Shown in pieces: positions 6,657 to 53,228 of a stretch of DNA of 64,000 nt (position 1 is its first letter; every line of letters begins with the position of its first letter). The stretch comes from a virus. The stretch lies in UHGV virus genome UHGV-0289908; one strand, written 5' to 3'. The translations under genes were made by a program, and so were the position numbers. Below the pieces are notes generated by a model. The model worked only from the letters and a program-made list of their open reading frames with translations. It was not told where the DNA came from and ran no database searches.

Positions 6657-6956
6657 ATGAGATATGAAACTGGAACGAGATTGAGACGAGTAGTAAGAGG
6701 ACAGGAATTTCATCTTGAAGGACTTGATACCTATGTTGTTGTAGGTCAATTAGACAATGGTTTTATTGTGCAAAGACCGCAAAGAGAAGAAGGGAGGGGT
6801 TGGATACTTCTGTCAAAAGAGCCCACAATAGCCGAAGAAGCAATCGCTATAGGGTTGATAACCAAGGAAGAAGCTCGTGAACGAAGATTTTGGTACTATC
6901 CAAACGACGCAGACGGATTTGAATTGGCAGGCAGTGTGATTCAGTGGATAAAATAG
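6657..6956 (+). CDS. Tandem paralogue 1 of 5 (about 100 aa, C-terminal IQWIK), function unknown
   Basis: Shares 'RFW(Y/W)YP' with paralogue 3 and a C-terminal (Q/E)WI(E/K/D) with all five. RBS 'TAGGAGGTGAAGTTATG'. Confidence 0.6.
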   Translation: MRYETGTRLRRVVRGQEFHLEGLDTYVVVGQLDNGFIVQRPQREEGRGWILLSKEPTIAEEAIAIGLITKEEARERRFWYYPNDADGFELAGSVIQWIK

Positions 6957-6969
6957 GAGGAGATAGAAG

Positions 6970-7281
6970 ATGTATTCGATTGGAACTAGAGTAGAAATTG
7001 TGGACGTAAATGACAACTATCGTATGAGAGGATTGGAGATAGGAGACCGAGGATGGGTAATACTCGAACCACGTGAACATGAAGTGGCGGTTATGTTTGA
7101 CAAAGAACTCTCATATGGATTAAGTTTTTCTCCTCATCGAAGCGACAATGCCCAAATTGCACAGATGATTGATAATGGAATTATGATGGATGGAGAACTT
7201 ATTCTGAACAGAAGCATTCATGTAGACTTTAATTGTATTAAGCCATGTAGGTTAGCACAGGCAATTCAATGGATAGAATAG
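6970..7281 (+). CDS. Tandem paralogue 2 of 5 (C-terminal IQWIE)
   Basis: Shares 'HEVAVMFDKE' with paralogue 4. The stop is embedded in 'TGGATAAAATAGGAGG'. Confidence 0.6.
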   Translation: MYSIGTRVEIVDVNDNYRMRGLEIGDRGWVILEPREHEVAVMFDKELSYGLSFSPHRSDNAQIAQMIDNGIMMDGELILNRSIHVDFNCIKPCRLAQAIQWIE

Positions 7282-7291
7282 GAGGAATAAT

Positions 7292-7606
7292 ATGAATGAA
7301 TCAATGGAGTTGAAAGTTGGAGACATTGTTGAATTCGTGAGTCGAGCAGATGATTCATGTGGAGAATGTGGAGGAGATAGAGGTAAGGTTGTCCGTGTTA
7401 GATATGATGGAATATGGGTATATCATCTAACAATGCCATGCGACACCGCATGGTCAATATATGACAGAGATGACTTTATAGCGGAGTGTCTTATCTCAGA
7501 AGGGGTCATTACAAATCACGAAGCACGTCAAAATCGTTTTTGGTGGTATCCTTTTAGTGCAGTAACAAAAGTGGCAAATGCTTCAAAAATTGAATGGATA
7601 GAATAG
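7292..7606 (+). CDS. Tandem paralogue 3 of 5 (C-terminal IEWIE), Cys-rich
   Basis: 'CGECGG', 'RFWWYP'. Confidence 0.6.
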   Translation: MNESMELKVGDIVEFVSRADDSCGECGGDRGKVVRVRYDGIWVYHLTMPCDTAWSIYDRDDFIAECLISEGVITNHEARQNRFWWYPFSAVTKVANASKIEWIE

Positions 7607-7616
7607 GAGGGGTAAC

Positions 7617-7928
7617 ATGTCATTTTCTAGCTTTAATCGAGGAGAACGAGTAAGAATAATCGCCCCCCAAAGAACGAAAGCCTTAGCCGTGGGGGATAAG
7701 GGATATATCATCAGAAATTCCAGTTTTGGACACTACGATGAAGTGGCGGTTATGTTTGACAAAGAATTCAGAGAGGGATTAAATTTCGTTGCGGGAGAAA
7801 ACAGTGATGAAGAGATAATCCGTCGTGGACTTGTGTATGCAGGTGAACATGTACAGAATCGTTCAGCATGGGTTCGAGTAGAAGACCTTGAACTCTGCTC
7901 AGACCACGAGATTCAGTGGATAGAATAG
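7617..7928 (+). CDS. Tandem paralogue 4 of 5 (C-terminal IQWIE)
   Basis: 'DEVAVMFDKEF'. Confidence 0.6.
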   Translation: MSFSSFNRGERVRIIAPQRTKALAVGDKGYIIRNSSFGHYDEVAVMFDKEFREGLNFVAGENSDEEIIRRGLVYAGEHVQNRSAWVRVEDLELCSDHEIQWIE

Positions 7929-7938
7929 GAGGTGCTAT

Positions 7939-8271
7939 ATGGTTGACAGTATGAATGGATTGTGCATAGGTGATAGAGTTATCATTTCTGGCAGTGGAGG
8001 AGATTTTGGAACTCCTTGTTCATGGATGGGGGAACGTGGAAGAATAATCTTTTTCGACACCGATGACGACTCTGCGGTGGTATTTTTTGACTCAAATATT
8101 GGACGCTGGGGATTGGTTGAATTAGATGAACCATACACCAGAGTCGAGCGTATTCAAGGTGGGCTAACAATGGGATGGTTTACTGAAAACGAACTAAAAA
8201 AAGAAAGATGTTCTTGGATAAGTGTTGAAAACCTATCACTGTTCTGCACACCAATTGAATGGATTGACTAA
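7939..8271 (+). CDS. Tandem paralogue 5 of 5 (C-terminal IEWID)
   Basis: N-terminal 'GDRVIISGSGG' beta-strand-like motif shared with the others. Confidence 0.55.
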   Translation: MVDSMNGLCIGDRVIISGSGGDFGTPCSWMGERGRIIFFDTDDDSAVVFFDSNIGRWGLVELDEPYTRVERIQGGLTMGWFTENELKKERCSWISVENLSLFCTPIEWID

Positions 8272-12367: not shown

Positions 12368-12737
12368 GGAGGTTGATTATTTTGATATGGGGACTGATTG
12401 ATGGATTGATTAGTGCCTTTATCCTCTCGCTATTTGGATTCGATGATATTGTTGTCGGATGTCTATATGAGTGGTTTGGAGTAACGGTGTCGTCCAATAG
12501 TTACTATATGCTGTTTGCTATTTTAGGAGCATTATCAACATTGGACTAGGAAGAGACTTAATATATGAAGAGCGAGCAATTAAACGCATTGAGATTTTTA
12601 AATATCGACAAGGCTAAGATTGATATATTAGGAGGGCAGGATATGGACTTAAAAAACGTGAGGTATCAATCGAAAAACTGTTTGTATTTAAACAATAAAA
12701 TTAATATTTTATAGTGCTATTTAAAAGGAGGAATTAC

Positions 12738-14036
12738 ATGAAACAAGTTGCAACAATTATTAAACAATTACAAAATACAAGTGGGACAAACGACAAGATT
12801 GCCATTGTCAAAGCTAATGCAGACAATGAAATACTTAAGAAGGTTCTATATTATACATACAACCCACTTATGACTTATAAGATTACAGAGTCGGTATTTA
12901 AAGAATACAAAGCAGGTAAGCACAGAGATGGTGACGTATTTGCAATGTTAGACGAATTAGCCAATAGCAACATCAATGACCAACTACGTGAACAGGTTGT
13001 AGCCTTTGTTGAGGCACAGGATGAGGATATCCAATGGTTAATCAAAGGAATGTTATTCAAGGACTTGCGTATCAATATGGGAGTTAAGAATATCAATAAA
13101 GCTATTCCTAAGTTAATTCCTGCTTGGGAGGTTCAGCAAGGTCACCCTGTGGATAAGGTTAAGAAGTTCAAACCTAATGAATGGTATTGCCTTGCATTAA
13201 AGTTAAACGGTATCCGAAGCACGTTCTATGATGGAGGATTCCGTAGTCGTCAGAATCAACCAATGACAGGGTATCAACATATCGTTGATGATTTAACAGC
13301 TATGTGTAATCACTTTGGTCAAGACGTATTAAACTGGGTATTTGATGGAGAGCTAGTTCACAAGAACCGAGACTATGCAATCCTAGACAACGAGAACTTC
13401 CGCTTAACATGTTCGATTGTTAACTCAGACGCTTTAGAGAAGCCACAAATTGAGCTTGTTTTATTCGATATGCTACCCATTGCTGAATTCAATAAAGGAG
13501 AGAGTAAGTTGGGATACAAAATGCGTTTAGAACGTCTTAAACGTATCCAGAATGCCATCGACTCTTTAGGGTTAGAACACATTCGTATTGCCCCAGTATT
13601 CTATGAAGGTAATGGGGTAGACCAAGCCGTCATTGACCATTACTTGGACTGGACTACTGAAATGAAGCTAGAAGGATTAATGTTAATCCGAGACTTTAAA
13701 TATCAGCGTAAGCGACATAATGGCATCTTGAAGGTTAAGCGATTCCTATTTTCAGATGTTCGTATCATTGGATACGAAGAAGGAGAAGGGAAACATGCAG
13801 GCAAATTAGGGTCTTTCATTATCGACTTCAAAGGAACACCAGTAGGTGTCGGTAGCGGCTATACAGACGCAGAACGTGAAGAATTCTGGGCTAATAGAGA
13901 CTTCTATATTGGCAAGATTTTAGAGGTTAAATATAAAGAAGAGACAAAGAATAAAAAGGATGATAGCATTAGCTTACAATTCCCTACTTTTAGTCGCATG
14001 CGATTAGATAAGGATGAAGTAAGCTACGAATCATAG
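12738..14036 (+). CDS. ATP-dependent DNA ligase (or nucleotidyltransferase-family RNA ligase)
   Basis: Motif I 'LKLNGIR' (KxDG-like). OB-fold-like C-terminus. RBS 'AAAAGGAGGAATTACATG'. Replication neighbourhood. Confidence 0.55.
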   Translation: MKQVATIIKQLQNTSGTNDKIAIVKANADNEILKKVLYYTYNPLMTYKITESVFKEYKAGKHRDGDVFAMLDELANSNINDQLREQVVAFVEAQDEDIQWLIKGMLFKDLRINMGVKNINKAIPKLIPAWEVQQGHPVDKVKKFKPNEWYCLALKLNGIRSTFYDGGFRSRQNQPMTGYQHIVDDLTAMCNHFGQDVLNWVFDGELVHKNRDYAILDNENFRLTCSIVNSDALEKPQIELVLFDMLPIAEFNKGESKLGYKMRLERLKRIQNAIDSLGLEHIRIAPVFYEGNGVDQAVIDHYLDWTTEMKLEGLMLIRDFKYQRKRHNGILKVKRFLFSDVRIIGYEEGEGKHAGKLGSFIIDFKGTPVGVGSGYTDAEREEFWANRDFYIGKILEVKYKEETKNKKDDSISLQFPTFSRMRLDKDEVSYES

Positions 14037-14047
14037 GAGGAAACCGC

Positions 14048-14194
14048 ATGTTGGAGTTGATTAACTTTATTTCCATGATGGCAGTTCTTGTAGGGCTAGG
14101 GATGATTGCGTCCACAGACCGCATTGACGGGAGACATAGAGCAGGAATTGTTGTGTACTTTGTTGGTATGGCACTATTTTTACTAACAGCTTAA
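14048..14194 (+). CDS. Small membrane protein (about 48 aa)
   Basis: Hand-translated hydrophobic peptide. RBS 'GGAGGAAACCGCATG'. Confidence 0.3.
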   Translation: MLELINFISMMAVLVGLGMIASTDRIDGRHRAGIVVYFVGMALFLLTA

Positions 14195-14202
14195 ATATTC
14201 GT

Positions 14203-14251
14203 CAAAATATTATAAAATGTGTTGACAAGCAATTACAAAGTTTGATATAAT
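14203..14251 (+). promoter_or_regulatory. Promoter module (TTGACA 14222-14227, TGaTATAAT 14243-14251)
   Basis: Consensus. Confidence 0.6.
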
Positions 14252-14326
14252 CAAGATGTCGAAAACGACAATGAATACATAGGGAGACGGTAGGTCTCCT
14301 ACCTCTCCCATAGGGAGGACATACTT

Positions 14327-14941
14327 ATGAACATTAAAACATTAGCAGTTGCAGGGATTGAGCAGTCCATGAAAGGGATGCGTAATCCGATGGATTCTTG
14401 GCACTTGCAGGATACCACAGGAGACATAATTGGAGAAAAGGATTTGAACCTCGCTCAACGTTTATTAAAAGCAGGAGCAGAGCACGCAAAATTCATGAGA
14501 CAAATTCATGTGTGGGTTGACATGGACATGCCACGTTATTGGTGGAGTGAGTTTGATACATACCACTATAATACGAAAAACAGTTGTTCAACAATGCACA
14601 AACTGTTAAACAAGAAAACACCAATTCGTTTAGAGCAGTTTTATTATGAACCACAAGATGAAGAATTCATGATGATTATTGTTGATAAGTTAAATGAAAT
14701 TCGAGAAGAATGGAATAACGCTCAAGGAACAAGCGATAAAAACTTGTGTCTTAAAAGAGCAAAACAGTTGTTACCAGAAGGGTTTTTACAGTTGCGAACG
14801 GTATCAACCAATTATGCTGAAATTCGCAATATTTACTTCCAACGTAAAAACCACCGTTTAAAAGAAGAATGGCAAGATACTTTTGTGGAATGGGTTAAGA
14901 CCTTACCATATGCGGAAGAGTTGATTATGTATGAAGGATAA
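14327..14941 (+). CDS. Hypothetical protein, possibly nucleotide-metabolism related given its position beside folD. Not assignable by eye.
   Basis: 204 aa. Preceded by a GGAGA/TCTCC-type hairpin in the leader. Confidence 0.4.
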   Translation: MNIKTLAVAGIEQSMKGMRNPMDSWHLQDTTGDIIGEKDLNLAQRLLKAGAEHAKFMRQIHVWVDMDMPRYWWSEFDTYHYNTKNSCSTMHKLLNKKTPIRLEQFYYEPQDEEFMMIIVDKLNEIREEWNNAQGTSDKNLCLKRAKQLLPEGFLQLRTVSTNYAEIRNIYFQRKNHRLKEEWQDTFVEWVKTLPYAEELIMYEG

Positions 14942-15572
14942 TCCGAGAAAGTGTTCTGTAGAAGGATGTGAAACACAGGCAAAACATAATTGCTTTGATG
15001 GCAAGCCATACTGTGGAAAACACCTTCATCACATGTATAGACATGGAGAAATAAGAACAATACATCGAAGAAGTCCAAATAACTATACAACTAATGGCAA
15101 CATTACTACAGTTGATTTATATGGGAATCGTGGGGAATTAAAAGGGCAAGCCATCATCGACACAGAAGACAAAGAAATTGTATCAAAACATAAATGGGGC
15201 TACACTCCCGATGGATATGTGAAAAGTTCAGCACAAAGACTACTATTGCACCGATTAGTGATGAATTGCACGGACAAGTATTTACAGGTAGACCATATTA
15301 ACGGAAATCCATTAGACAATCGCAAGGCGAATTTGCGATTAGTCACAAATCAACAAAATCAGTTTAATTCAAAAAACACTGGTTCGGGAGACAACTCTCG
15401 AAAAGGAGTTTCATTTCGCAAAGACCGAAACAAATGGAGAGCTTATATCACGCTAAACGGAAAACAAATAGCCCTCGGTTCGTTTGACACAGAAGCGGAA
15501 GCAATAGAGGCTAGAATCCAAGCAGAAGAAAAGTACTATCGAGAATACAGGAGAGGGGAATATTATGAGTAA
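14931..15572 (+). CDS. HNH homing endonuclease with a C-terminal AP2-like DNA-binding domain
   Basis: N-terminal Zn knuckle 'CSVEGCETQAKHNCFDGKPYCGKH'. 'VDHINGNPLDNRKANLRLVTNQQN' HNH core. 'GVSFRKDRNKWRAYITLNGKQIALGSFDTEAEAIEAR' AP2. Confidence 0.7.
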   Translation: MKDNPRKCSVEGCETQAKHNCFDGKPYCGKHLHHMYRHGEIRTIHRRSPNNYTTNGNITTVDLYGNRGELKGQAIIDTEDKEIVSKHKWGYTPDGYVKSSAQRLLLHRLVMNCTDKYLQVDHINGNPLDNRKANLRLVTNQQNQFNSKNTGSGDNSRKGVSFRKDRNKWRAYITLNGKQIALGSFDTEAEAIEARIQAEEKYYREYRRGEYYE

Positions 15573-16413
15573 GATTATTGATTGTGTGTCTATTGCACAG
15601 AAAGTAAAAGAAGAGGTAAAACAAGAAGTTTCAACAATGGAGCATGCACCTTGTTTAACAGTTGTGATTGTGGGGGACGACCCTGCGTCACAGGTGTATG
15701 TGCGAAACAAAGAGAAAGTATGCGAAGAGGTTGGAATTAAATCTGTAGTGCATAGACTTCCTAGTGATTCAACGCAAACGATGGTAGAAGGGGTCGTAAA
15801 GGCATTAAATCATGACCATAATATTCATGGCATTTTGGTTCAGTTGCCATTGCCAAAGCACTTGGATGAACAGCGTATAATTGACTGTATTGACCCACGT
15901 AAGGACGTAGACGGTTTGACAGTCCACAACCAAGGATTATTAGCTTTAGGACGACTTAGCGAAGCAGTATTACCATGTACTCCAAGCGGAGTCATCCGTA
16001 TCTTTGATGAAATCGGGTATGACCTTGCAGGGAAAGATGTGGTCATTGTAGGACGCTCTAACCTGTTTGGAAAGCCAATGGCTCAATTATGTTTAAATCG
16101 TAATGCTACGGTTACCATGTGTCATAGCAAGACACAAGCGTTAAAACATGTCACAGCCTTATCAGATGTAGCAATTTGTGCAATCGGAGCACCTAAATTC
16201 TTTGATGAGAACTTCTTCCGTAACAATGATGTAGTTATTGATGTAGGAATTAACCGAGACGAGAACGGGAAGTTATGTGGAGACGTAGACCTTCACGCAG
16301 TATTAGAAGAGGTAGGAGCTATCACCCCTGTTCCACGTGGAGTTGGTGTGCTCACTACCGCTATGTTATTAAAGAATGTATTAAAGTGCTCAAAACTATT
16401 GGGCAATAAATAG
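15565..16413 (+). CDS. folD: Bifunctional methylene-THF dehydrogenase / methenyl-THF cyclohydrolase (FolD)
   Basis: 'VGDDPASQVYVRNKEK', 'VQLPLPKHLDE', 'DVDGL', 'PCTPSGV', 'VVIVGRSNLFGKPMAQL' all match FolD signatures. Confidence 0.8.
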   Translation: MSKIIDCVSIAQKVKEEVKQEVSTMEHAPCLTVVIVGDDPASQVYVRNKEKVCEEVGIKSVVHRLPSDSTQTMVEGVVKALNHDHNIHGILVQLPLPKHLDEQRIIDCIDPRKDVDGLTVHNQGLLALGRLSEAVLPCTPSGVIRIFDEIGYDLAGKDVVIVGRSNLFGKPMAQLCLNRNATVTMCHSKTQALKHVTALSDVAICAIGAPKFFDENFFRNNDVVIDVGINRDENGKLCGDVDLHAVLEEVGAITPVPRGVGVLTTAMLLKNVLKCSKLLGNK

Positions 16414-16892: not shown

Positions 16893-17492
16893 ATGAAAAC
16901 ATTACTTACTAACTTAACATTACAAGAAGCAACAGAAGCGATTCAAGGAACTACAAATACTATGTACCGTGGGGCTTGGACAGCAGAGTATTCACCTGCG
17001 GAAGTAGCAATCGGGTTCGATGAATATGGGGAACTATACGACGTAGCAGATGATGTGGAAGCAACATTATCATTAGAAGACATCATGGCTAAAGATTGGT
17101 GTGTATTAGCTGACACAGACGCAGATATCGAGAAATGGGAGGAAGGCATGCGTCATGTATTAGAAGGTTTCCGATTAATGGATGGGACACAGGTAGATGA
17201 ATTCCGATTCATGTTCTGGAAGCAGTTGACAATGTTATTGTCGACCTATTTCGGAGAAGCTACATCAGCACACTACATTAAGACAGGGGAACTTGTTCAC
17301 AATAGAAAATGTGATTGTCCAGATTGTCGTATTGGGCGATTCCAAAAGAATCCAGAGGAAGAATTAAAGAAAACATTAGACCGTTTAGCTAACATGGTTG
17401 GAACGGTGAATCCAGAAGACAACTTTATTGAGTTTCCAGACGGTGGGAAAGAAATGAATGATTTCTTAAAGTTCTTATTCGGAGACAAGTAA
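16893..17492 (+). CDS. Hypothetical acidic protein
   Basis: ORF. RBS 'TAGGAGAGATAATATG'. Confidence 0.4.
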   Translation: MKTLLTNLTLQEATEAIQGTTNTMYRGAWTAEYSPAEVAIGFDEYGELYDVADDVEATLSLEDIMAKDWCVLADTDADIEKWEEGMRHVLEGFRLMDGTQVDEFRFMFWKQLTMLLSTYFGEATSAHYIKTGELVHNRKCDCPDCRIGRFQKNPEEELKKTLDRLANMVGTVNPEDNFIEFPDGGKEMNDFLKFLFGDK

Positions 17493-17537: not shown

Positions 17538-17587
17538 CTAAAATATTATAAAATGCTATTGACAATATCTTACAGATATGTTAATAT
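17538..17587 (+). promoter_or_regulatory. Promoter module (TTGACA 17559-17564, 17-bp spacer, TGtTAATAT)
   Basis: Consensus with a slightly degenerate -10. Confidence 0.5.
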
Positions 17588-17631: not shown

Positions 17632-18321
17632 ATGGCAACACAAAAGAACAAACGCAAGTCTTGGACTGCAACAATCAAACGTTGGTTTGGGATGAAAGCA
17701 GAAGCAGCTAATGACGCAATGGACGGAATGGTGGATTTAGAAGTCCAATTAAAACGCAAGAAACGTGAATTATTAGAACGACGAGATGAAATCCGCAACG
17801 GAGATAACATGAGTCAAATCTTAGGTTTAAAAGCTCAGTTAGAGAACGACCTAATCGCAGAGCGTCGCAAGTTCGAACAGTCGAAGTACATTGAAACAAT
17901 TCGTCGCTTACGTGACACTGGTCAAACAGAACAGGCTAAACGATTATTAATCGAGAAGAACCAAAAAGAGCAAAAGATTGAAACTCTTGTTCAACAGTTG
18001 GCAGAAGCAACAAATGCAGAAACTGAAATCTTACGTCAGTTAGACATCTTAGACCGCAACATTGCTCAAGCTACGGCAGAGTTAGACGAGTTCCAACGAC
18101 GCAATCAAATGGCACAACAAACAGAAGCTATCTACGACGTATTAAACAGTGTTACTGACATCAACACAGGATATGACGCAGACGGAATTCATGAAGCTAT
18201 TGCAGAGCGTGAAAGAGCAGCGGCAGGACGACGCACGTTATATAATAATGCTAATGTTGCAAACAATGCTCGCTATGACGCAGAGATGTCTTCTCTTGAT
18301 GACGAATTAGCAAACTTATAA
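17632..18321 (+). CDS. Coiled-coil protein, function unknown
   Basis: Long heptad-like charged helices. RBS 'CAAAGGAGAGATGAACATG'. Confidence 0.4.
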   Translation: MATQKNKRKSWTATIKRWFGMKAEAANDAMDGMVDLEVQLKRKKRELLERRDEIRNGDNMSQILGLKAQLENDLIAERRKFEQSKYIETIRRLRDTGQTEQAKRLLIEKNQKEQKIETLVQQLAEATNAETEILRQLDILDRNIAQATAELDEFQRRNQMAQQTEAIYDVLNSVTDINTGYDADGIHEAIAERERAAAGRRTLYNNANVANNARYDAEMSSLDDELANL

Positions 18322-18366
18322 TACTTAACATACTATTAAGAATACATACTCAAGGAGAGATTAACT

Positions 18367-18909
18367 ATGGCAATTAACTTAGAAAAAGGAAATGGAATTT
18401 GTTTAGATAAAGGATTATCACGTGTAGCATTCACAGTAAGTTGGGATACAAATGAAGATGTGGACATCTCAGCCATGTTATTAGAAAATGGTCGTGGAAA
18501 ACGAGATACAGACTTTGTATTCTTCAACAACTTACAACATGAAAGTGGAGCAGTAAAGCACAGTGGAGACATTCGTAACGGAGCTCATGCACTTGGTGTA
18601 GATGATGAAGTAATTGACATCGACTTAAACAAAGTGCCTGCAAACTTCACCGAGATTGTCTTAGTAGCAGATATCTACAATGGAGCTTCTAAAGGATTGC
18701 ACTTCGGTAAGATTGCAAACTCAACAGCTAAGATTGTTGACTTAGACACTAATCGAGTATTGGCTTCATTTAAGTTGGACAAAGACTTAATCGGTCAAAC
18801 AACTTGTGAGTTAGCCCGTGTGGTTCGTGACAATGGAGCATGGAAGTTTGAGAACTTATCTCATCCAGTAATGTCTCTAACAGGAGCATTGACTTCAAGA
18901 GGTTTTTAG
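18367..18909 (+). CDS. TerD-domain protein (tellurium-resistance / Ca2+-binding stress protein family)
   Basis: 'MAINLEKG...ISLDKGL...' start, 'DVDISAMLL', 'GDIRNGA..GVDDEVIDIDL', 'GASKGLHFGKI'. About 180 aa is typical for TerD. Confidence 0.7.
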   Translation: MAINLEKGNGICLDKGLSRVAFTVSWDTNEDVDISAMLLENGRGKRDTDFVFFNNLQHESGAVKHSGDIRNGAHALGVDDEVIDIDLNKVPANFTEIVLVADIYNGASKGLHFGKIANSTAKIVDLDTNRVLASFKLDKDLIGQTTCELARVVRDNGAWKFENLSHPVMSLTGALTSRGF

Positions 18910-19002
18910 TTGAGTAAAGGGCACTAATGCCACAGCACTTTACTGAGACAGAGTGGCAGTAAGGGGTCGTAATTGACCCCCTCTCTTAAAAGGAGGATGG
19001 AT

Positions 19003-19266
19003 ATGTTCTTTAAGAAGAAAAGCTACATTGACAAGGTTCGAGAGAAAACCCGACAAGGAAAGTTAAGAAGTGCAAGAACCGCAATATATGAGGTGCAGTG
19101 TTCAATAGAAAGAGCTTGTGAAGAAGGTAAAAGCAGTACAAAGGTGACCTATTACGGGGGCGACCAAGAGAGGGTTGAGTTTATCTCGCAATATCTAAGC
19201 GAACAAGGGTTTAAAACCTCCATTGACAAGGGAAGTACTTATGCAACCCTAAAAATTAGTTGGTAA
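19003..19266 (+). CDS. Hypothetical protein
   Basis: RBS 'AAAAGGAGGATGGATATG'. Confidence 0.35.
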   Translation: MFFKKKSYIDKVREKTRQGKLRSARTAIYEVQCSIERACEEGKSSTKVTYYGGDQERVEFISQYLSEQGFKTSIDKGSTYATLKISW

Positions 19267-19278
19267 ACTTATACTTTT

Positions 19279-19806
19279 ATGCACATTGAAAGGAAGATGA
19301 AGATGAAAGAAACAACAATTATTAGCGGATTCCCTGGGGTTGGGAAAACAGAATTTTTTAAAGACCAAAAGTATCATGGGAGAGTATGTTTGGATAGTGA
19401 TAGTAGTGAGTTTAGTTGGGTAAAAGATGAAAATGGAAATAATACAAAAGAAAGAAACCCAGAGTTTCCAAATAATTATATAAAACATATTAAAGAGAAC
19501 ATCGGTAAAGTTGATATTATATTTGTGAGTAGTCATGACGTTGTTAGAAAAGCGTTAGAAGAAGCTGATGTTAGATATGTATTGGTTTACCCAGAATTAA
19601 CAGCAAAAGATGAATATGTTAGAAGATACCGACAACGAGGTAACAATGATGGTTTTATTAAATTTATTAGTGATAATTGGGATAGTTTTATAAACGATAT
19701 GAAGAATGAAACTTTTCCATACAAAAAGGAATTGAAAGAATGGCAATATCTATCATCAATGGGAGTTGTTTTTAGTTGTGAGGTTGCAGGGTATTGTGAA
19801 TGTTAA
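19279..19806 (+). CDS. P-loop NTPase / putative nucleotide or polynucleotide kinase
   Basis: Walker A 'GFPGVGKT'. About 170 aa. Noticeably AT-rich, with AGA/AGG arginine codons. Confidence 0.45.
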   Translation: MHIERKMKMKETTIISGFPGVGKTEFFKDQKYHGRVCLDSDSSEFSWVKDENGNNTKERNPEFPNNYIKHIKENIGKVDIIFVSSHDVVRKALEEADVRYVLVYPELTAKDEYVRRYRQRGNNDGFIKFISDNWDSFINDMKNETFPYKKELKEWQYLSSMGVVFSCEVAGYCEC

Positions 19807-19852
19807 AAGTGAATAAAATTTAATTTTTAAATACATTTTGAGGAGATGATTT

Positions 19853-19996
19853 ATGAGATACTTGAAAAACTTCTTGGTTAATTTGTTTACGATAATCGGT
19901 GTTTGGATAATTCTAATCAACTGGTTTGGTTTTAAAGTCCTATTAACCATCCCAGAGTTTTGGTGGGATAAGTTTAAAAATAAATTTATGAGGTGA
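19853..19996 (+). CDS. Small membrane protein
   Basis: Hand-translated 'MRYLKNFLVNLFTIIGVWIILINWFGF...'. Confidence 0.25.
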   Translation: MRYLKNFLVNLFTIIGVWIILINWFGFKVLLTIPEFWWDKFKNKFMR

Positions 19997-20001
19997 TAAA
20001 A

Positions 20002-20151
20002 GTGGAAGAATTTGATTTAGTTACTTGCGAACTTTGTTTTTGGAATGATGTTGACTCTGACGTTCAGTGCGAGAAGTGTGGAAGATATTTTTGTGAGGAC
20101 TGCGGTTCTTATGGTGAGTGCATTTGCAACAATTGTAAAGATGGTAAATAA
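20002..20151 (+). CDS. Small double-CxxC zinc-ribbon protein (paralogue a)
   Basis: 'CELCFW...CEKCGRYFCEDCGSYGECICNNC'. Confidence 0.3.
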   Translation: MEEFDLVTCELCFWNDVDSDVQCEKCGRYFCEDCGSYGECICNNCKDGK

Positions 20152-20184
20152 AATTAAATTTTTATACAGAAATGAGGTTAAAGA

Positions 20185-20364
20185 ATGAACGAACGTATAT
20201 ATAGTGGTGAAGTTTGTGACTTTTGTGCGAATTGTTTAACAATACTTAATGAGGGTGATGAGTATATAAGATGTGAAGTTTGTGGGGACTTATATTGTGC
20301 AGACTGTATTAGAAAAAACGAGATTGGCGAGTATGTTTGTATTCGCTGTGTTGAAGAAGAATAA
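20185..20364 (+). CDS. Small double-CxxC zinc-ribbon protein (paralogue b)
   Basis: 'CDFCANC...CEVCGDLYCADC...CIRC', same arrangement as the previous ORF. Confidence 0.3.
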   Translation: MNERIYSGEVCDFCANCLTILNEGDEYIRCEVCGDLYCADCIRKNEIGEYVCIRCVEEE

Positions 20365-20585
20365 GTAAATAAAATCAGAAGTTAACAGACATTTAAGGAG
20401 TGGTAAAATGGATTTTAATAAGTGTCATATTGAACTACTTGTAAGAGCATTAGACCATTATAAGTGGTATCAAGTGATTTCAGATGAAGAAAAAGAAGAG
20501 TGTGTCAGAATAAAACGCATTCTTCAAAAGTTATATAAACAAATTGATGGCAAACAAAATTAGAATTTTAAAGGAGACGATATTA

Positions 20586-21287
20586 ATGGCTATTAACTTA
20601 ACTAAAAATCAAGGAATTAACTTAACAAAAGATGTTGAAGGGGTTGAAGAAGCATTAAAGACTATTAAATTAGGATGTGGATGGCAAGCGTCTGATTCGG
20701 GCTATGTAACTATTACACGAACAGTAACGAAAACTCGTCGCACTGGAGGATTCCTTGGATTTGGTGGAACGATTGAAACTTACGAAGAGCCAGCAACTGA
20801 GGAAGTGTATGTAGGAAACATTGATGTAGACGCTTCGGTATTTGCCTTCAAGAATGGAACATTAGTTGGAGAGTGTACATTCCGCAATCAAACAATGAAG
20901 AATCGAGTAGGTAAAACTGTTGCTAAATCAAGCGGAGATGACACAGTGGGGTCTCGTGGTAAGAACAAGAGCGACAATGAAACAGTTACCATTAACCTTG
21001 AGAATGCTGTTGGATTTGCAGATACATTATACTTAGCATTAAACATCTTCCAAGCGAAGAGCAAGGGTCAGCACTTCAACATGATTAATAATTCTTATGT
21101 GCGAGTGTATGATGACAAAGGTATTGAGTTGGCATACTTCAACTTAGCAGAAGACTATGACAAGAAAACAGGAATTGTGGTCGGTAAATTAGTTGAACGA
21201 AATGGGAAGTTTGAGTTTGTTGCATTAGGTGACGGAGTGATTGTTAGCGACTTACGTGACTTAGCTTCAAAATCAAAACGATACTAA
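20586..21287 (+). CDS. TerD-domain protein, second copy
   Basis: Starts 'MAINLTKNQGINLTK' like the first TerD. RBS 'AAAGGAGACGATATTAATG'. The ORF-track start at 20544 is probably too far upstream. Confidence 0.6.
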   Translation: MAINLTKNQGINLTKDVEGVEEALKTIKLGCGWQASDSGYVTITRTVTKTRRTGGFLGFGGTIETYEEPATEEVYVGNIDVDASVFAFKNGTLVGECTFRNQTMKNRVGKTVAKSSGDDTVGSRGKNKSDNETVTINLENAVGFADTLYLALNIFQAKSKGQHFNMINNSYVRVYDDKGIELAYFNLAEDYDKKTGIVVGKLVERNGKFEFVALGDGVIVSDLRDLASKSKRY

Positions 21288-21373
21288 TACATATGAGGGG
21301 ATGACCCCCTCAACCTACTAAATGAGATACTTAGAATAAATACTATACTTAGAACAAAGGAGCAACTATACTT

Positions 21374-23944
21374 ATGAAGAATATTAATGGATTAACAAAC
21401 GCAGAAGTGGAATCGCAACGCATGCTATTTGGAGATAATAAGATTGCAGAAGCAGAACCAAAGAAGTTTTGGACAGAATGGTTGGCAAACTTTGAAGACC
21501 CAATGTTAAAATTATTAGTGGGAATTACAGTGTTAATGGCGGTAATCGCTGCCTTTGGATTCACAGAATGGTTTGAAGTCATTGGTATCTTAATCTCTGT
21601 GACAATCGTAACACTTATTTCAACAAAGACTGCAATGGTTTCAGATGGAGAATACCGCAAGTTAAAAGAAGAGAACTCTCATGAGACTTGTAAGGTATGC
21701 CGTAATGGACAAATTGAAATCATTGACACTAACGACTTGGTGGTTGGAGACTTTGTTTTAGTTCAATCGGGAGAGAAGATTCATGCAGATGGATTCTTAT
21801 ATGATGGGAACATTAAGGTAGACAACTCAGCGTTAAACGGTGAGTCAGATGAAGTTAAAAAGATTCCAACAGACTTCTATGACTTTGCAAATGGTGAAAT
21901 GACAGACTCTCACATGATGTTACGTGGAGCTTTAGTTGCTGACGGGGAAGGTGTTATGAAAGTAGCCAAGGTTGGAGCAAACACTATGATGGGACGTATG
22001 GCAGAAGAGATGACAGAAGAAGAGGTTGACTCTCCATTAAAAGTTAAGTTAACACACTTAGCAGAGCAAATCTCTAAATTCGGTTATATCGGAGCAGTAG
22101 TTATTGGATTAGCTATCTTAGGTAACTCAATCTTAAGTAACGGGCTACAGTCTTGGTTGGCACAACCATTCGCATTAATGGCTAAAGACGTGTTAAATGC
22201 CTTATTAGTATCAGTAACAATCGTAGTTATGGCAGTACCAGAGGGATTACCTTTAATGATTGCAATTGTATTAATGCAAAACACTTCAAAGATGTTGCAA
22301 CACAATGTATTAGTGCGTAAGGCAGTAGGTATTGAAACAGCGGGGTCATTAAACATCTTATTCTCAGATAAAACAGGAACTATCACTAAAGGTCAGTTAG
22401 AAGTAGTAAACTTCATTGACAAGGACGGAAACCAGTTTGATTCAATCACTGGATTAGACGAAGGTATGCAGAAGTTAGTTGCCACATCATTAAAGATTAA
22501 CAACTCGGCTATGATTGTAGACGGTGAAATCACAGGTGGGAACATGACAGACCGCGCTTTATTACAATATGTTAAAGATATTGAGCATGAAGATTTAAAG
22601 GTAGTAAAAGTGGAAACATTCAACTCTGCTAAGAAGTTCATGGCAACTCAATGTGAGACAGCAATGGGTCGTACATTAACGCTATACAAAGGTGCAGTTG
22701 AACGAGTATTAGACAAATGTATCAATATTACAGATGAAGAACGCAACAAAATCAACACTATTGTTGACGAAATGGCTAACAATGCAATCCGTGTACTTGC
22801 TATCAGTTATGCTCATGGAGAGTTAGTAGCAGGTGAATTATCACCAGAGATGAGCTTATTAGGGGTAATTGGTATCCGTGACGATGTTCGTCCAGAAGCT
22901 AAAACAGCCATTGCAGAAGTACAAAATGCAGGTGTTCAAGTAGTCATGATTACTGGAGACCGCAAAGAAACAGCAGTAGCAATCGCAAAAGACGCAGGAT
23001 TAATTACCAAAGACACAGATGTGGTATTAACATCAAGTGAATTACAGGACTTATCAGATGAAGAAGTAAAAGCAATCATTCCAAACTTAAAGGTAGTTGC
23101 TCGTGCATTGCCAACAGACAAGTCACGTATGGTTCGTTTATCACAGGAGCTAGGACTTGTAGCAGGGATGACAGGTGACGGAACTAACGACAGTCCTGCC
23201 TTAAAACGAGCAGACGTAGGGTTTGCCATGGGGTCTGGAACAGATGTAGCGAAAGAAGCAGGAGACATCATCATCTTAGATGACAACTTCAAGTCAATCG
23301 CAGACTCGGTGTTATATGGTCGTACTATCTATAACAATATCTTAAAGTTTATCAAGTTCCAATTAACAATCAACGTAGTAGCAGTATTTATTTGTGCAGT
23401 GTGCCCATTCTTCGGTATCCAAGAGCCATTAAACATTATCCAGTTGCTAATCCTCAATTTAGTAATGGACAGCTTAGGGGCTATGGCATTAGGTGGAGAA
23501 CCTGCATTAAAAGAGTACATGAATGAGAAGCCAAAGTCTCGTACACAATCAATCGTAGATAAAGCTATGATGATTCAAGTAGGTGCTATGGGAGCATTCA
23601 TGGCAGTATTAAGTTTATTATTCTTATTTGTTCCTATGTTCAAAGACATGTTTGGTCAAGCACATTTAACAGGATACTTCGCACTATTCATGTTGATGTC
23701 TGTATTCAATGGATTCAATGTGCGTAGCATGGATTCAAATGTATTCAAGGGATTAGATGAAAACAAAACATTCGCTAAGGTTATGGTTGCTATCGTTGCC
23801 ATCTTAGTAGTGTTAACACTCATTGGAGGAGAATTCTTATCAGTAACCCCAATGAACTTAGTGCAATGGGTTGTGGTGTCAGTAATGGCAGTAACAGTAA
23901 TTCCATTCGGAAGTTTCTTAAAAGGATTAATTTCGTCAAAATAA
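21374..23944 (+). CDS. P-type cation-transporting ATPase (type IIA, Ca2+-ATPase-like)
   Basis: 'DKTGTIT' phosphorylation site, 'MITGDRKETA', 'GDGTNDSPALKRADVGFAMG', an N-terminal cation-ATPase-N segment and about 8-10 TM helices. Confidence 0.85.
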   Translation: MKNINGLTNAEVESQRMLFGDNKIAEAEPKKFWTEWLANFEDPMLKLLVGITVLMAVIAAFGFTEWFEVIGILISVTIVTLISTKTAMVSDGEYRKLKEENSHETCKVCRNGQIEIIDTNDLVVGDFVLVQSGEKIHADGFLYDGNIKVDNSALNGESDEVKKIPTDFYDFANGEMTDSHMMLRGALVADGEGVMKVAKVGANTMMGRMAEEMTEEEVDSPLKVKLTHLAEQISKFGYIGAVVIGLAILGNSILSNGLQSWLAQPFALMAKDVLNALLVSVTIVVMAVPEGLPLMIAIVLMQNTSKMLQHNVLVRKAVGIETAGSLNILFSDKTGTITKGQLEVVNFIDKDGNQFDSITGLDEGMQKLVATSLKINNSAMIVDGEITGGNMTDRALLQYVKDIEHEDLKVVKVETFNSAKKFMATQCETAMGRTLTLYKGAVERVLDKCINITDEERNKINTIVDEMANNAIRVLAISYAHGELVAGELSPEMSLLGVIGIRDDVRPEAKTAIAEVQNAGVQVVMITGDRKETAVAIAKDAGLITKDTDVVLTSSELQDLSDEEVKAIIPNLKVVARALPTDKSRMVRLSQELGLVAGMTGDGTNDSPALKRADVGFAMGSGTDVAKEAGDIIILDDNFKSIADSVLYGRTIYNNILKFIKFQLTINVVAVFICAVCPFFGIQEPLNIIQLLILNLVMDSLGAMALGGEPALKEYMNEKPKSRTQSIVDKAMMIQVGAMGAFMAVLSLLFLFVPMFKDMFGQAHLTGYFALFMLMSVFNGFNVRSMDSNVFKGLDENKTFAKVMVAIVAILVVLTLIGGEFLSVTPMNLVQWVVVSVMAVTVIPFGSFLKGLISSK

Positions 23945-23985
23945 TATAAAATAGATTGACAACATATGACAATCTATGATATAGT
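23941..23985 (+). promoter_or_regulatory. Promoter module (TTGACA 23956-23961, 18-bp spacer, TGaTATAGT)
   Basis: Consensus. Confidence 0.55.
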
Positions 23986-24097
23986 TTAAATGCACCTAGG
24001 AAATAGTTTTTGACAGTCAGTACCTACCATGGTAGGTATTGGCAATCAAGAACTGATTCAAAAAGAGAGAGTGAGTTCTTAATACTTGTTAGGAGAG

Positions 24098-25543
24098 ATG
24101 AACATGAATTATAACCACAGAAGTTTTATTTGGGATTGTGACGCTTACAAGCTAGGACATATGTGCCAGTACCCAAGCGACACAGAATATGTTTACTCAG
24201 TATTACAATTACGCAGTGACCGATACTTCACTGAGACACCGATTGTTGGGTTACAATACCTAATTAAAGAGTACTTAATGCAACCAATTTTAAAAGGTGA
24301 TGTCGAAGGGCTAATTGCAGAAGCAAAAGCAATGGGAATCTATCACCCAGATACTGAAACAAAGTTGATGGCTTTAGTAGACTTAGGATACTTACCATTA
24401 GAGATTAAGGCATTACCAGAGGGTAGTGTTGTGGGAATGCCAAATGCAGTGTGTACAATTCAAAATACCGTTGCAGGATTCCACTGGGTAGTAGGGTTCG
24501 TAGAAACATTATTGTTAAAATGGTGGTCAGCCTTAGCAACAGGAGCTTGTAGCTTAAAGTATCGTCGCATTGTTGATAAGTACTTTGCAGAAACATCAGA
24601 CAACGACTTCTTACGACCATTCGCTGTTCATGATTTTGGTTCACGTGGGGCAATGACTCCAGAGGGAGCAGCTTTTACAGGAATGGCTCACGCATTAAAC
24701 TTCGATGGTTCTGACACAATCGTATCAGCTCCATTAATTCGCAAGTTCTACAATGCAGAAGGAATGGTAATCTGCTCAGTGCCTGCTAGCGAACACTCTG
24801 TAATGTGTTCATTTGGACGAGAAGATGAAATTAAAGCATTTGAGAACATGTTAGATATTTACCCTACAGGGATTGTTTCAATCGTTTCAGATACATATAA
24901 TTGGTACAATGTTATGGATAACATGACGCTACAACTAAAAGACCGCATTATGGCTCGTGATGGTAAAGTGGTATTTCGACCAGACAGTGGTAATCCATAT
25001 CACATCATTTGTGGCGAGTACACTGATAAGACATTGAGAAAGTATTGTGAAGAAAGCTGTCAAACTCATGGCGGAATCCATATGTTAGATAAAATATTTG
25101 GTCACACAGTCAACTCAAAAGGATACAAAGTATTGGATTCACATGTAGGACTAATCTACGGGGATGGAATGTATTTAGAACGTTTCGAGAAGACGTTAGA
25201 AACATTAAAAGACCTAGGATATAGTGCGGAAAACTTAGTAATTGGGGTAGGTGGAATCTTACGCAATCACACTCGAGATACTTTAGGAGCGGCATTCAAA
25301 GCGACTTGCGTGTGTCGTGATGGCAAATGGATTCCTATTATGAAAGACCCTATCACTGACCAAGGGAAGAAATCATATCAAGGCTTTGTATCCGTCATCA
25401 AAGAAGATGGACAATATAAAACGGTCGAAGGTGGACATCCACAAGACTTATTACAAACAGTGTTTAAGGATGGACAATTAGTAAAAGACTTCACTTGGCA
25501 GGAAGTTAAAGACCGATACAATTCAGAGTTAGGAGACCGATAA
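24098..25543 (+). CDS. nadV: Nicotinamide phosphoribosyltransferase family protein (NAMPT/NadV-like; candidate Namat of the phage NAD+ reconstitution pathway 1)
   Basis: Blocks 'LPLEIKALPEG', 'HDFGSRG', 'NFDGSDT', 'PASEHSV', 'VSDTYN', 'RPDSGNP', 'NSKGYKVL', 'IYGDG', 'DLLQTVFKDGQL' align one-for-one with NAMPT signature blocks. Confidence 0.85.
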   Translation: MNMNYNHRSFIWDCDAYKLGHMCQYPSDTEYVYSVLQLRSDRYFTETPIVGLQYLIKEYLMQPILKGDVEGLIAEAKAMGIYHPDTETKLMALVDLGYLPLEIKALPEGSVVGMPNAVCTIQNTVAGFHWVVGFVETLLLKWWSALATGACSLKYRRIVDKYFAETSDNDFLRPFAVHDFGSRGAMTPEGAAFTGMAHALNFDGSDTIVSAPLIRKFYNAEGMVICSVPASEHSVMCSFGREDEIKAFENMLDIYPTGIVSIVSDTYNWYNVMDNMTLQLKDRIMARDGKVVFRPDSGNPYHIICGEYTDKTLRKYCEESCQTHGGIHMLDKIFGHTVNSKGYKVLDSHVGLIYGDGMYLERFEKTLETLKDLGYSAENLVIGVGGILRNHTRDTLGAAFKATCVCRDGKWIPIMKDPITDQGKKSYQGFVSVIKEDGQYKTVEGGHPQDLLQTVFKDGQLVKDFTWQEVKDRYNSELGDR

Positions 25544-25544
25544 G

Positions 25545-26390
25545 ATGAACCGACAGGATGTAAAACGATTAACAGATGATTTTCGTAGTAATATTTATGT
25601 CAAAACTGTCCATGGCATGACAGTGGTTGATTTAGACCAGTGGGGAGCAGGAGAGTATCGAGTGACCTATGATATTTGTGAAAAGTATGGGAAATACATT
25701 CATTTGTATATTCCATACGCTACAATGAGCACCCTAGAGAAAGCCATTGTGTTTACACGCTTTGCTTATAAGCAAGGGGCAAAACTGCGTACAACAATAG
25801 GGTATGTGGCATATGGACGACAAGAGCGAGAAACTGGATTAGAACCAGAGCTATTCTCTGTAGTCAAAGACATGATTGCACACCTTCACAACGTGCACAT
25901 CATTGACCCTCATAACATTCCTTCTGCCCTTGAGTATAACACAGAGTGGTTTTCTCCTAAAATCAACGATATGTTGCCAAGGGGGTTCTTAATTGTAGCC
26001 CCAGACAAGGGAGCTGACACTCGCAACAAGAAATTAAATCTGCACTCTGACTATGTAATTGAAAAGGTTCGTACAGTAGACGGAGTAAAATCTCGCATTA
26101 TAGAAGATGACACATTCACTGGAGAAGTGGTTAACGACCCTATAGATTTTATTATCTATGACGACATTTGTGATGGAGGTCGCACTTTTGTGAACGTAGC
26201 AGACATTATGAGAGCCAAGTATCCAAACTGCACCATCACGCTATGTGTTGCACATGCTATCCTGCCTTTTGGGACAGACCATTTAAAAGGTAAGATTAAT
26301 AAGATTATCACGTCAAACACATGTTTCCCTGCGGGAACCTATGATGATGGATTCTTAGATGTTTTAAATGCGTTAAATATCTTCTATTAA
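25545..26390 (+). CDS. Ribose-phosphate pyrophosphokinase (PRPP synthetase) homologue; candidate Adps (ADP-ribose pyrophosphate synthetase)
   Basis: 'LIVAPDKGADTR', 'IIYDDICDGGRT' (PRTase-type nucleotide loop), 'CVAHAILPFG'. Starts 1 nt after the NAMPT-like stop, so likely an operon. Confidence 0.75.
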   Translation: MNRQDVKRLTDDFRSNIYVKTVHGMTVVDLDQWGAGEYRVTYDICEKYGKYIHLYIPYATMSTLEKAIVFTRFAYKQGAKLRTTIGYVAYGRQERETGLEPELFSVVKDMIAHLHNVHIIDPHNIPSALEYNTEWFSPKINDMLPRGFLIVAPDKGADTRNKKLNLHSDYVIEKVRTVDGVKSRIIEDDTFTGEVVNDPIDFIIYDDICDGGRTFVNVADIMRAKYPNCTITLCVAHAILPFGTDHLKGKINKIITSNTCFPAGTYDDGFLDVLNALNIFY

Positions 26391-53207: not shown

Positions 53208-53228
53208 TTTGTTTCCCCTTTCAAATTG

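Follow-up and report, generated by a model that had tools for sequence, protein, structure and literature searches.

The window analysed here is the whole 64,000-nucleotide stretch of UHGV virus genome UHGV-0289908, and it carries a rightward-transcribed accessory module of four genes that encode, in order, a PspA/IM30-like protein, two TerD-domain proteins (TerD1 and TerD2) and a PMCA-type P-type ATPase predicted to export Ca2+ (Table 1). We propose that these genes form a Ter-derived module that would extrude Ca2+ and stabilise the membrane of the infected cell, an explanation whose chances we judge to be about even. A sequence-only reading of this DNA had located the two TerD genes and the pump gene correctly and had paired them as a module, a view upheld by their adjacency in related phages, in 79 of 80 IMG/VR loci and in the Ter clusters of the nearest cellular homologues. 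It had, however, placed the TerD genes on either side of the pump, where both in fact lie upstream of it, and it had overlooked the PspA-like gene that opens the module; the left edge of the feature should be drawn at about 17560, so that this gene is included.

The pump is a full-length P-type ATPase, as the sequence-only reading had held, with Asp332 of the DKTGT motif, TGD527 and GDGTND601 all intact. Its ion-site motifs are likewise preserved in transmembrane helices 4, 5 and 6 (PE290GL in TM4, FQLTIN667VVA670V in TM5 and N695LVMD699 in TM6), and the strings SDKTGTIT (D332), TGD527 and GDGTND601 are invariant among the phage and Clostridium homologues. When the protein was scored against the NCBIfam models, the PMCA-type IIB equivalog TIGR01517 was the only subtype-specific model that it passed (573.4 bits against a trusted cut-off of 507.05), together with the generic P-type subfamily model TIGR01494 (259.9 against 62.3). 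It fell far under every cut-off of the SERCA, PMR1, H+, Mg2+, Na/K and heavy-metal models, the failed IIA models being SERCA TIGR01116 (354 against 703.4) and PMR1 TIGR01522 (420 against 798.3). Ranking against the sequences of the PDB put the ACA and PMCA pumps first, with ACA8 at 372 bits, PMCA1 at 365, PMCA2 at 364, LMCA1 at 346, SPCA1 at 341 and SERCA at 278. The strings PEGLP, FQLTINVVAV and NLVMD of TM4, TM5 and TM6 align residue for residue with the PMCA and ACA pumps, and in TM5 Ala670 stands at the position of the SERCA site-I Glu, so that only one Ca2+ site is implied. The earlier description of a Ca2+-type pump is thus supported by the sole equivalog model passed, whereas its assignment to type IIA is superseded by a IIB-like one on the NCBIfam scores, the PDB ranking and Ala670. 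NCBI gives close homologues the name 'calcium-translocating P-type ATPase, PMCA-type'.

A heavy-metal P1B pump, which the sequence-only reading had named as the outcome that would count against it, is not what was found: the scores lie below the cut-offs of TIGR01525 (227 against 346), TIGR01511 (187 against 397) and TIGR01512 (167 against 313.5), and TM4 holds PEGL where P1B pumps carry CPx (CPC or CPH). The pump alignment spans residues 143-1014 of ACA8 and 148-1058 of the 1274 of PMCA1, with both regulatory tails missing; the omission of the ACA8 N-terminal region and of the PMCA1 C-terminal tail implies that the phage protein has no calmodulin-binding autoinhibitory domain. Judged from these alignments, the pump is a bacterial-type core related to P2B and not a full eukaryotic-style PMCA.

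Both smaller open reading frames (ORFs) encode TerD-family proteins, as had been proposed, and each scores far over the curated cut-off of PF02342 (142 bits for TerD1 and 93 bits for TerD2 against 25.3), the reverse of the failure of TerD models that had been named as damaging to that proposal. Both also match phrog_5698, and TerD1 matches the PDB sequences 2kxt (E value 5e-22) and 3ibz (6e-21). The two are 31% identical to each other, and either is 30-36% identical to Clostridium TerDs. At the TerD2 locus the longest ORF begins at TTG 20544. The AlphaFold2 model of TerD2 (predicted local distance difference test (pLDDT) 88.6, predicted template-modelling score 0.83) shows a TerD core in which a 40-residue insertion forms a long beta-hairpin (strands 40-53 and 62-75) with a nearly invariant motif, GGFLGFGG, at its tip. 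Foldseek matches of this model to TerD structures span E values from 9e-15 to 1.5e-7, with 9a6r_B (SCP2) at 9e-15, 3ibz at 2e-12 and 2kxt at 8e-10. A resemblance of the hairpin to the stems of beta-pore-forming toxins and to C2 domains was considered and set aside, the Foldseek probability being below 0.15, which is not significant. The TerD2 subfamily is sharply bounded, with 46-99% identity within it and at most 32% beyond. In one relative (GCA_028748525.1, 6541-7280; L009) the TerD1 orthologue is represented by two overlapping, out-of-frame, TerD-matching ORFs while TerD2 and the pump are intact, and this split reflects a frameshift pseudogene or else a mistake in the assembly.

Two side observations concern these proteins. 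The ribosome-binding site and first ~15 codons are alike in TerD1 (18340-18420) and TerD2 (20560-20640), both reading AAGGAGA...ATGGC(A/T)ATTAACTTA; a 70-nucleotide stretch at the TerD2 start is 82% identical to the TerD1 start of the relative L003, and this short repeat at the two starts brackets an insertion-prone interval. Glycine/aromatic strings also recur, as GGFLGFGG at residues 54-61 of TerD2, IKRWFGMK at residues 15-22 of the PspA-like protein and MGFFxKLFGK at the N-termini of vWA-TerF-like proteins encoded at other viral loci (L136, L095 and L118). By their sequence, these strings could be a common membrane-binding or partner-binding motif.

The first gene of the module lies in an ORF that is open from 17578, and ATG 17632 is its probable start, favoured because of the Shine-Dalgarno sequence AAAGGAGAG and the lengths of the orthologues. 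Five of five PspA-like orthologues match PF04012 (best E value 1.7e-11), with ~180 of the 220 profile positions covered, and precomputed PF04012 matches exist for such orthologues. The AlphaFold2 model is all-helical (pLDDT 74, from an 8-sequence alignment), and its top 10 Foldseek matches in the PDB are all Vipp1/PspA structures, matched at full length over 212-223 columns with template-modelling scores of 0.31-0.50. When the family profile was compared with PDB sequences, marginal Vipp1 matches were obtained (E values 0.15-0.9). Profile and model together point to a divergent PspA/IM30 homologue in the window. The family is narrow, with 9 clusters found, and the protein has undergone zero amino-acid changes relative to L170, one of the closest relatives, at a synonymous divergence (dS) of 0.34.

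The module is retained in related phages. Relatives with pumps 95% and 71% identical to the pump of the window share the gene order PspA-TerD-TerD-pump, and a relative at 65% pump identity shows PspA, fragments of TerD1, an intact TerD2 orthologue and the pump. Across the four genes the ratio of nonsynonymous to synonymous substitution rates (dN/dS) is 0.00-0.26, with 0.07-0.26 for TerD1 and 0.12-0.17 for the pump, values that indicate purifying selection on all four. A decayed pump gene in relatives, another outcome that the sequence-only reading had set against itself, is contradicted by this dN/dS range of the pump and by lengths of 854-871 residues at 63-98% identity. The next relative, below 63% identity, is the chromosomal pump of Clostridium celatum (58%), whose gene ends a Ter cluster of PRTase_2/TRSP, StiP, HAD, YceG, TelA, three TerD genes and the pump.

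To examine linkage more widely we took profiles made from the sequences collected here and scanned 80 IMG/VR loci, selected as the best-scoring of at least 263 stretches rather than at random, together with 79 GTDB genome loci that encode pump relatives. A TerD gene lay on the same strand within 3 kb of the pump in 79 of the 80 viral loci, in at least six gene orders, so that the co-occurrence that had been suggested as a check was found both in the relatives and in this sample. Among the GTDB genomes the same arrangement occurred at 7 of 79 loci, all seven belonging to the ten most similar pumps and five of them sitting in YceG-TelA-TerD clusters. In a quick neighbour-joining tree, built without support values, all 94 TerD-linked pumps fell into a single clade of 101 tips and all 64 pumps outside it were unlinked. 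With a broader profile, a PspA-like gene was detected within 5 kb of the pump in 70 of 80 viral and 0 of 79 cellular loci, and a vWA-TerF-like gene in 42 of 80 viral loci and no cellular locus; other viral lineages show the order pump, vWA-TerF-like gene (PF10138, E value about 1e-60), TerD, PspA-like gene. Representative PspA-type loci are flanked by genes with strong PHROG matches, and a few 'cellular-type' IMG/VR loci are ambiguous. The description of the pump as rare cargo holds for GenBank phage records and fails for metagenomic viral contigs, given the at least 263 IMG/VR stretches that encode relatives.

Home-made profiles for TelA, YceG, StiP and HAD matched the Clostridium loci and nothing in the window, and Pfam scans of the module ORFs showed neither TerB nor TerC, for which no dedicated profile search was made. 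By sequence comparison and gene neighbourhood, the pump falls in a subfamily of its own whose genes nearly always adjoin TerD genes, and the module is a phage-adapted derivative of a bacterial Ter stress cluster. In phages the PspA-like protein, often together with a copine-like vWA protein of the TerF type, replaces TelA and YceG.

The module is flanked by the ligase/FolD genes on one side and the YorF/AAA_24/YorH/DnaB/polymerase genes on the other, all on one strand, and we found no plus-strand terminator within it. A promoter-like sequence precedes the PspA-like gene and a near-consensus one follows the pump stop codon; at the latter the module ends on its right side and a separate NAMPT/PRPS-like cassette begins. 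These sites are consensus matches only, and the total of promoter-like sites in the region does not exceed the shuffled expectation. The 86-bp spacer between TerD2 and the pump contains no ORF, where L003 carries a 67-residue one, and it holds a hairpin that, having no T-tract, is not a canonical plus-strand terminator. Rfam searches at the gathering threshold and at E values up to 1 detected no riboswitch or other element upstream. An acidic ORF at 16893-17492 was considered as a fifth member and rejected; its homologues occur in the closest relatives only, and it has no Pfam, PHROG or PADLOC match. PADLOC-DB v2, searched at E values up to 1e-3, returned no match for this ORF, the four module proteins or the five proteins of the islet described below.

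Table 1. Features of the module and of its surroundings in the 64,000-nucleotide window.
Feature	Coordinates	Strand	Details
PspA/IM30 (ESCRT-III superfamily)-like protein	17632..18321	+	229 aa, MATQKNKRKSW...
TerD1, TerD-domain protein	18367..18909	+	180 aa, MAINLEK...; PF02342 E 1.6e-41; loop GDIRNGAHALGVDDE
TerD2, YceC/SCP2-like TerD	20586..21287	+	233 aa, MAINLTK...; PF02342 E 2e-26; loop GDDTVGSRGKNKSDNE
PMCA-type (P2B-like) P-type ATPase, predicted Ca2+ exporter	21374..23944	+	856 aa; Pfam domains; phrog_12316 E 1e-136
Promoter-like site, sigma-70-like, extended -10	17559..17587	+	TTGACA-17-TGtTAATAT; 10/12 with TG in consensus scan; just 5' of PspA-like gene
GC-rich hairpin	21294..21312	+	TGAGGGG-ATGAC-CCCCTCA; in the TerD2-pump spacer
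Near-consensus promoter-like site	23956..23985	+	TTGACA-18-TGaTATAGT; 11/12 with TG; after pump stop codon
AT-rich islet	18979..20563	+	~1.6 kb between the TerD genes; strain-specific insertion
Islet ORF	18973-19266	+	97 aa
Islet ORF, P-loop, largest in islet	19279-19806	+	phrog_4182 E 7.5e-56
Islet ORF, CxxC mini-protein	19993-20151	+	52 aa
Islet ORF, CxxC mini-protein	20185-20364	+	59 aa
Islet ORF	20408-20563	+	51 aa
NAMPT-like gene, then divergent PRPS-like gene	24086-26390	+	PF04095/PF18127, phrog_448; TIGR01251 E 6e-11, below cut-off
Nucleotide-metabolism block	12714-16413	+	ATP-dependent DNA ligase, 204-aa ORF, ORF 14931-15572, FolD
Endolysin	51106-52107	-	
Tyrosine integrase	52167-53246	-	PF00589 E 7e-18; between endolysin and tail-fibre array
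Three paralogous tail-fibre genes	56256-63870	-	all phrog_6782

Two insertions interrupt or adjoin the four genes. The AT-rich islet between the TerD genes had been recognised from its composition (GC 0.325 at 19001-20000 against about 0.38-0.40 nearby), and it had gone unnoticed that it is an insertion absent from the closest relatives: blastn alignments with L170 and L171 stop at 18978/19059 and restart at 20564, and L170 has ~19 bp in its place. The islet was rejected as a part of the Ter module on its absence from L170 and L171 and on the homologues of its P-loop protein in SP-10, AR9, PBS1 and c-st, a protein common in large Bacillota phages; it is unrelated inserted cargo outside the conserved unit. 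The adjacent islet mini-proteins of 52 and 59 residues each contain paired, zinc-ribbon-like CxxC motifs, and one has a weak B-box match (PF22586, E value 8e-5, below cut-off). The NAMPT/PRPS-like pair downstream of the pump (cassette 24064-26389) is a clean indel that is absent from L170 and L171 and present in L003. The NAD+-reconstitution pathway NARP1 of phages consists of Namat and Adps (bioRxiv 10.1101/2024.02.11.579819, PMC12774641), and the matching pairing here makes this cassette, as far as its domains tell, a probable NARP1 counter-defence cassette.

Several known systems resemble the module in part. Ca2+ P-type ATPases of Jug and other gut phages were recently described as highly transcribed and 'not detected previously in phages' (PMC12880540; Sci Adv 2026, preprint August 2025). 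As in the window, those pumps are phage-encoded and Ca2+-type, have the same four Pfam domains and apparently come from the host lineage, and terD and pspA-like genes were noted in the Jug genomes too. The Jug phages, however, are of 360-402 kb and have Bacteroides or Phocaeicola hosts, whereas the phage of the window is SPbeta-like, of ~150-160 kb, with a pump closest to Clostridium; a few smaller phages of 159-197 kb with Bacillota-like pumps are also reported in that paper. Its authors treat the TerD/PspA genes and the pump as separate operons, whereas TerD2 here ends 86 bp 5' of the pump, and the Jug pumps are co-transcribed with a small upstream gene (77-91 residues) that has no counterpart between TerD2 and the pump. 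The paper makes no mention of vWA/TerF or of a general pump-TerD-PspA(-vWA) linkage. A Ca2+-transporting P-type ATPase of a Chlorella virus, cited there as functional and expressed during infection (Bonza et al., ref. 38 in PMC12880540), is by that description likewise a virus-encoded Ca2+ pump, but of a eukaryotic giant virus.

Among cellular systems, the Clostridium cluster (YceG, TelA, three TerD genes, pump) and the Bacillus subtilis yceCDE-meeF-yceGH cluster share with the phage module a run of tandem TerD genes that has a divalent-cation exporter gene directly after it. The operon of yceCDE, the three TerD genes of B. subtilis, also includes the downstream gene for MeeF, a TerC-family member active in Mn efflux (PMC10550928), where the phage module has a P-type pump, and the Clostridium cluster has TelA, YceG and PRTase/StiP/HAD genes, in place of which the phage carries the PspA-like gene. 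The phage TerDs are moreover only 30-36% identical to cellular ones and have remodelled Ca2+ loops. By analogy, TerD paralogues followed by a divalent-cation exporter may be a conserved arrangement, as we infer, in which the exporter has been swapped for a non-homologous one. The terZABCDEF tellurite, phage and colicin resistance operon of IncHI2/IncHI-type plasmids also encodes TerD-family proteins and has membrane-related stress and phage-inhibition phenotypes (PMC8123226); the phage module shows no TerB, TerC, TerA or TerZ and no known link to tellurite, and instead has the P-type pump and the PspA-like gene. PspA, Vipp1 (IM30) and ESCRT-III proteins appear to share an all-helical hairpin architecture with the phage family, whose orthologues match PF04012, but the family is strongly diverged (15-18% identity), has no PspB, PspC or PspF partners and is linked to TerD and the pump. 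The eukaryotic P2B pumps (PMCA and plant ACA) are the best matches of the pump among solved structures, with TM4-TM6 ion-site residues that imply one Ca2+ site; they differ in the calmodulin-binding N- or C-terminal extension, absent from the 856-residue phage protein, and in having TGES where the phage has NGES. On this analogy, TerD might serve as a calmodulin-like partner of the phage pump.

The putative mechanism would begin with expression during lytic development together with the surrounding early genes, which is probable because the module is co-oriented inside the early replication/nucleotide-metabolism block. Ca2+ entering through a perturbed envelope would be expelled by the pump at the expense of ATP. 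The TerDs would act as cytosolic, membrane-proximal partners or regulators of a pump that appears to have no calmodulin-binding autoinhibitory domain of the eukaryotic P2B kind, and the PspA-like protein would stabilise or reseal the stressed membrane. The joint result would be a low cytosolic Ca2+ level and an energised membrane, such that the infected cell still supports replication of the phage.

Several observations weigh against this explanation. The window copy of the PspA-like protein scores 23.5 bits against PF04012 (E value 4.7e-5), under the gathering score of 33.9, and the Vipp1/PspA structural matches of its model have E values of 3e-3 to 7e-2, above 1e-3. The actuator-domain motif of the pump is LN155GES rather than TGES, with the Glu kept and Thr replaced by Asn; NGE[S/A/T] occurs in every phage and Clostridium homologue examined, and its presence in chromosomal Clostridium homologues marks it as a trait of the clade and not as decay. 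Earlier work on TerD, credited in PMC8123226 to Pan 2011 and Daigle 2015, found Ca2+ binding and an influence on Ca2+ homeostasis, and the sequence-only reading had taken the fold as Ca2+-binding; the TerD domain is confirmed here, but the property is not simply transferable, the canonical acidic loop GDN(R/L)TGxGxGDDE being remodelled to GDIRNGAHALGVDDE in TerD1 and to the basic GDDTVGSRGKNKSDNE in TerD2, with the DxD segment and the terminal D(D/N)E kept in both. The canonical loop is retained in 18 of 20 cellular pump-linked TerDs and in only 63 of 121 viral ones, and because of this and of the remodelled loops, Ca2+ sensing by TerD1 and TerD2 is, from their sequences, uncertain. The make-up of the locus sample and the quick tree call for similar caution: many of the 80 IMG/VR loci are near-duplicates from dataset 3300045988, and L120, L126, L128, L134 and L093 among them may be non-viral. 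Ion specificity, TerD-pump interaction and the timing of expression are, for this pump clade, all matters that we infer. Expression in lysogens is also possible, because the window has a tyrosine integrase and SPbeta-like replication genes.

That last possibility leads to an unlikely alternative, in which the module is lysogenic-conversion cargo expressed from the prophage and conferring tolerance to Ca2+ or other metals or to envelope stress (bile, bacteriocins or antimicrobial peptides), in the manner of plasmid and island Ter clusters. The integrase, a polymerase that shares 41% identity with its counterpart in the temperate phage SPbeta and a promoter-like site directly 5' of the PspA-like gene are compatible with such a role, as are the reports of Ter operons as multi-stress determinants (PMC8123226) and of stress sigma factors inducing the yceCDE-meeF operon (PMC10550928). 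Morons are typically insulated, however, whereas this module lies amid the replication/nucleotide-metabolism block on the same strand without flanking plus-strand terminators; the pump-TerD-PspA combination recurs on many large viral contigs, and the Jug phage pump is highly transcribed in gut samples (PMC12880540). Lysogenic conversion is also compatible with Ca2+ extrusion and membrane stabilisation during infection and does not exclude it. We consider it quite unlikely that the module is instead a device of inter-phage or phage-host conflict, acting in superinfection exclusion or, through leak repair and Ca2+ export, against membrane-permeabilising abortive infection. PspA-family proteins respond to membrane damage, which suits such a role, and in the window and in L003 the module adjoins the probable NARP1 cassette; this adjacency is not conserved, however, being absent from L170 and L171. 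Ter operons have been implicated in phage inhibition and in resistance to pore-forming colicins (PMC8123226), but no module or islet protein matches the PADLOC defence models, and the module contains no toxin- or effector-like gene.

It is distinctly unlikely, in our view, that the substrate of the pump is Mn2+ or another divalent cation, the pump having replaced the TerC/MeeF Mn exporter for metal detoxification or the metalation of secreted proteins. The pump does occupy, after the TerD genes of the Clostridium cluster and of the phage, the position of MeeF in the B. subtilis yceCDE-meeF operon, no TerC was recorded within 8 kb on either side of the pump in the C. celatum locus, and a Mn2+/Ca2+ P-type ATPase of streptococci is cited in PMC10550928. 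Passage of the curated PMCA-type Ca2+ equivalog model and alignment of the TM4, TM5 and TM6 ion-site strings with PMCA and ACA argue instead for Ca2+, and no Mn riboswitch or other Rfam element was found upstream. Passenger host DNA, in the form of a recently captured Ter-cluster fragment decaying without a phage function, is barely credible and already largely refuted. The two-frame TerD1 of L009, the diverged Ca2+ loops of the phage TerDs and the insertions that gather between module genes would suit decay, but the pump is full length over a clade at 63-98% identity, its catalytic and ion-site motifs are intact, and dN/dS is 0-0.26 for the four genes, with the PspA-like protein unchanged at dS 0.34; at just 30-36% identity to Clostridium TerDs, the phage TerDs also imply that capture was not recent.

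A bolder extension of Ca2+ extrusion and membrane stabilisation draws on wound repair in eukaryotes, where inflowing Ca2+ attracts C2, copine, annexin or ALG-2 proteins, which in turn recruit ESCRT-III before PMCA restores Ca2+. By analogy, the TerDs could be Ca2+-responsive, membrane-directed regulators of a divalent-cation exporter, in a calmodulin-like or C2/copine-like role, and together with PspA (ESCRT-III-like) and the copine-like vWA protein they could make up a prokaryotic and viral kit for Ca2+-triggered membrane repair. Many large phages might have a pared-down form of this kit, by which the membrane of the infected cell stays sealed and energised or permeabilising abortive-infection effectors are defeated. 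We think this fairly unlikely.

Elsewhere in the window, ORFs match a DnaB-like helicase, a RecJ-like exonuclease, a DNA polymerase, an exonuclease V/Dda-like helicase, an endolysin and a tyrosine integrase; full-length alignment of the DNA polymerase with SPbeta YorL gives 41% identity, and related contigs (up to 160.6 kb) encode YorF, AAA_24 and YorH. The window comes from a gut Bacillota phage of the SPbeta-like kind, whose relatives lie on ~150-160 kb contigs. Members of the pump clade at 63% identity or more were found in gut assemblies of ENA and Logan, pig gut included, and none in GenBank phages, IMG/VR or GTDB representative genomes; ERZ978717 and ERZ11466715 are two examples of the pig and other gut metagenomes that contain relatives. 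A megablast of the module against GenBank phages returned no near-identical DNA, and the protein matches in GenBank phage records are mostly unannotated fragments, bacterial contigs or distant Mg2+-type pumps. Two 'UNVERIFIED Bacteriophage sp.' records from human faeces contain tandem TerD genes, in MT840059.1 directly 3' of a pump with 47% identity and in MT836648.1 inside a cellular-type StiP-YceG-TelA-TerDx3 cluster; judged from translated ORFs both seem GC-rich, and they may represent bacterial rather than phage DNA. The tyrosine integrase could serve integration or, possibly, tail-fibre switching. In the nucleotide-metabolism block, ORF 14931-15572 resembles an HNH endonuclease by eye, and FolD is a phage-encoded methylene-tetrahydrofolate dehydrogenase/cyclohydrolase, with PF00763/PF02882 matched on its orthologues. 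Further upstream, at 6657-8271 on the plus strand, five tandem paralogous ORFs of 99-110 residues (20-39% mutual identity) have a common C-terminal I(Q/E)WIE motif and no Pfam match. A tRNA scan found none.

Since a phage Ca2+ pump has already been published (2025-26), the novelty does not lie in the pump. In the searchable literature, the near-constant linkage of pump, TerD and PspA seems not to have been described, although earlier notice of the bacterial TerD-pump neighbourhood is possible. New here are the setting in an SPbeta-like Bacillota phage, the four-gene unit and the contrast between pump-TerD(-PspA/vWA) in phages and TelA/YceG in cells. The cargo carried by phages would thus be a unit of pump, TerD and PspA(/vWA) and not a lone transporter, which refines the published report of phage Ca2+ pumps, and the range of the module is extended to SPbeta-like phages of Clostridia-type hosts. 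TerD proteins occur widely, and their ties to tellurite, colicin and phage resistance go back decades; to our knowledge they have no established molecular function. The association of the pump with TerD, and the addition of a PspA-like protein in phages, suggest that TerD acts with a cation exporter at the membrane, and the main value of the finding is the testable handle that it gives on TerD function.

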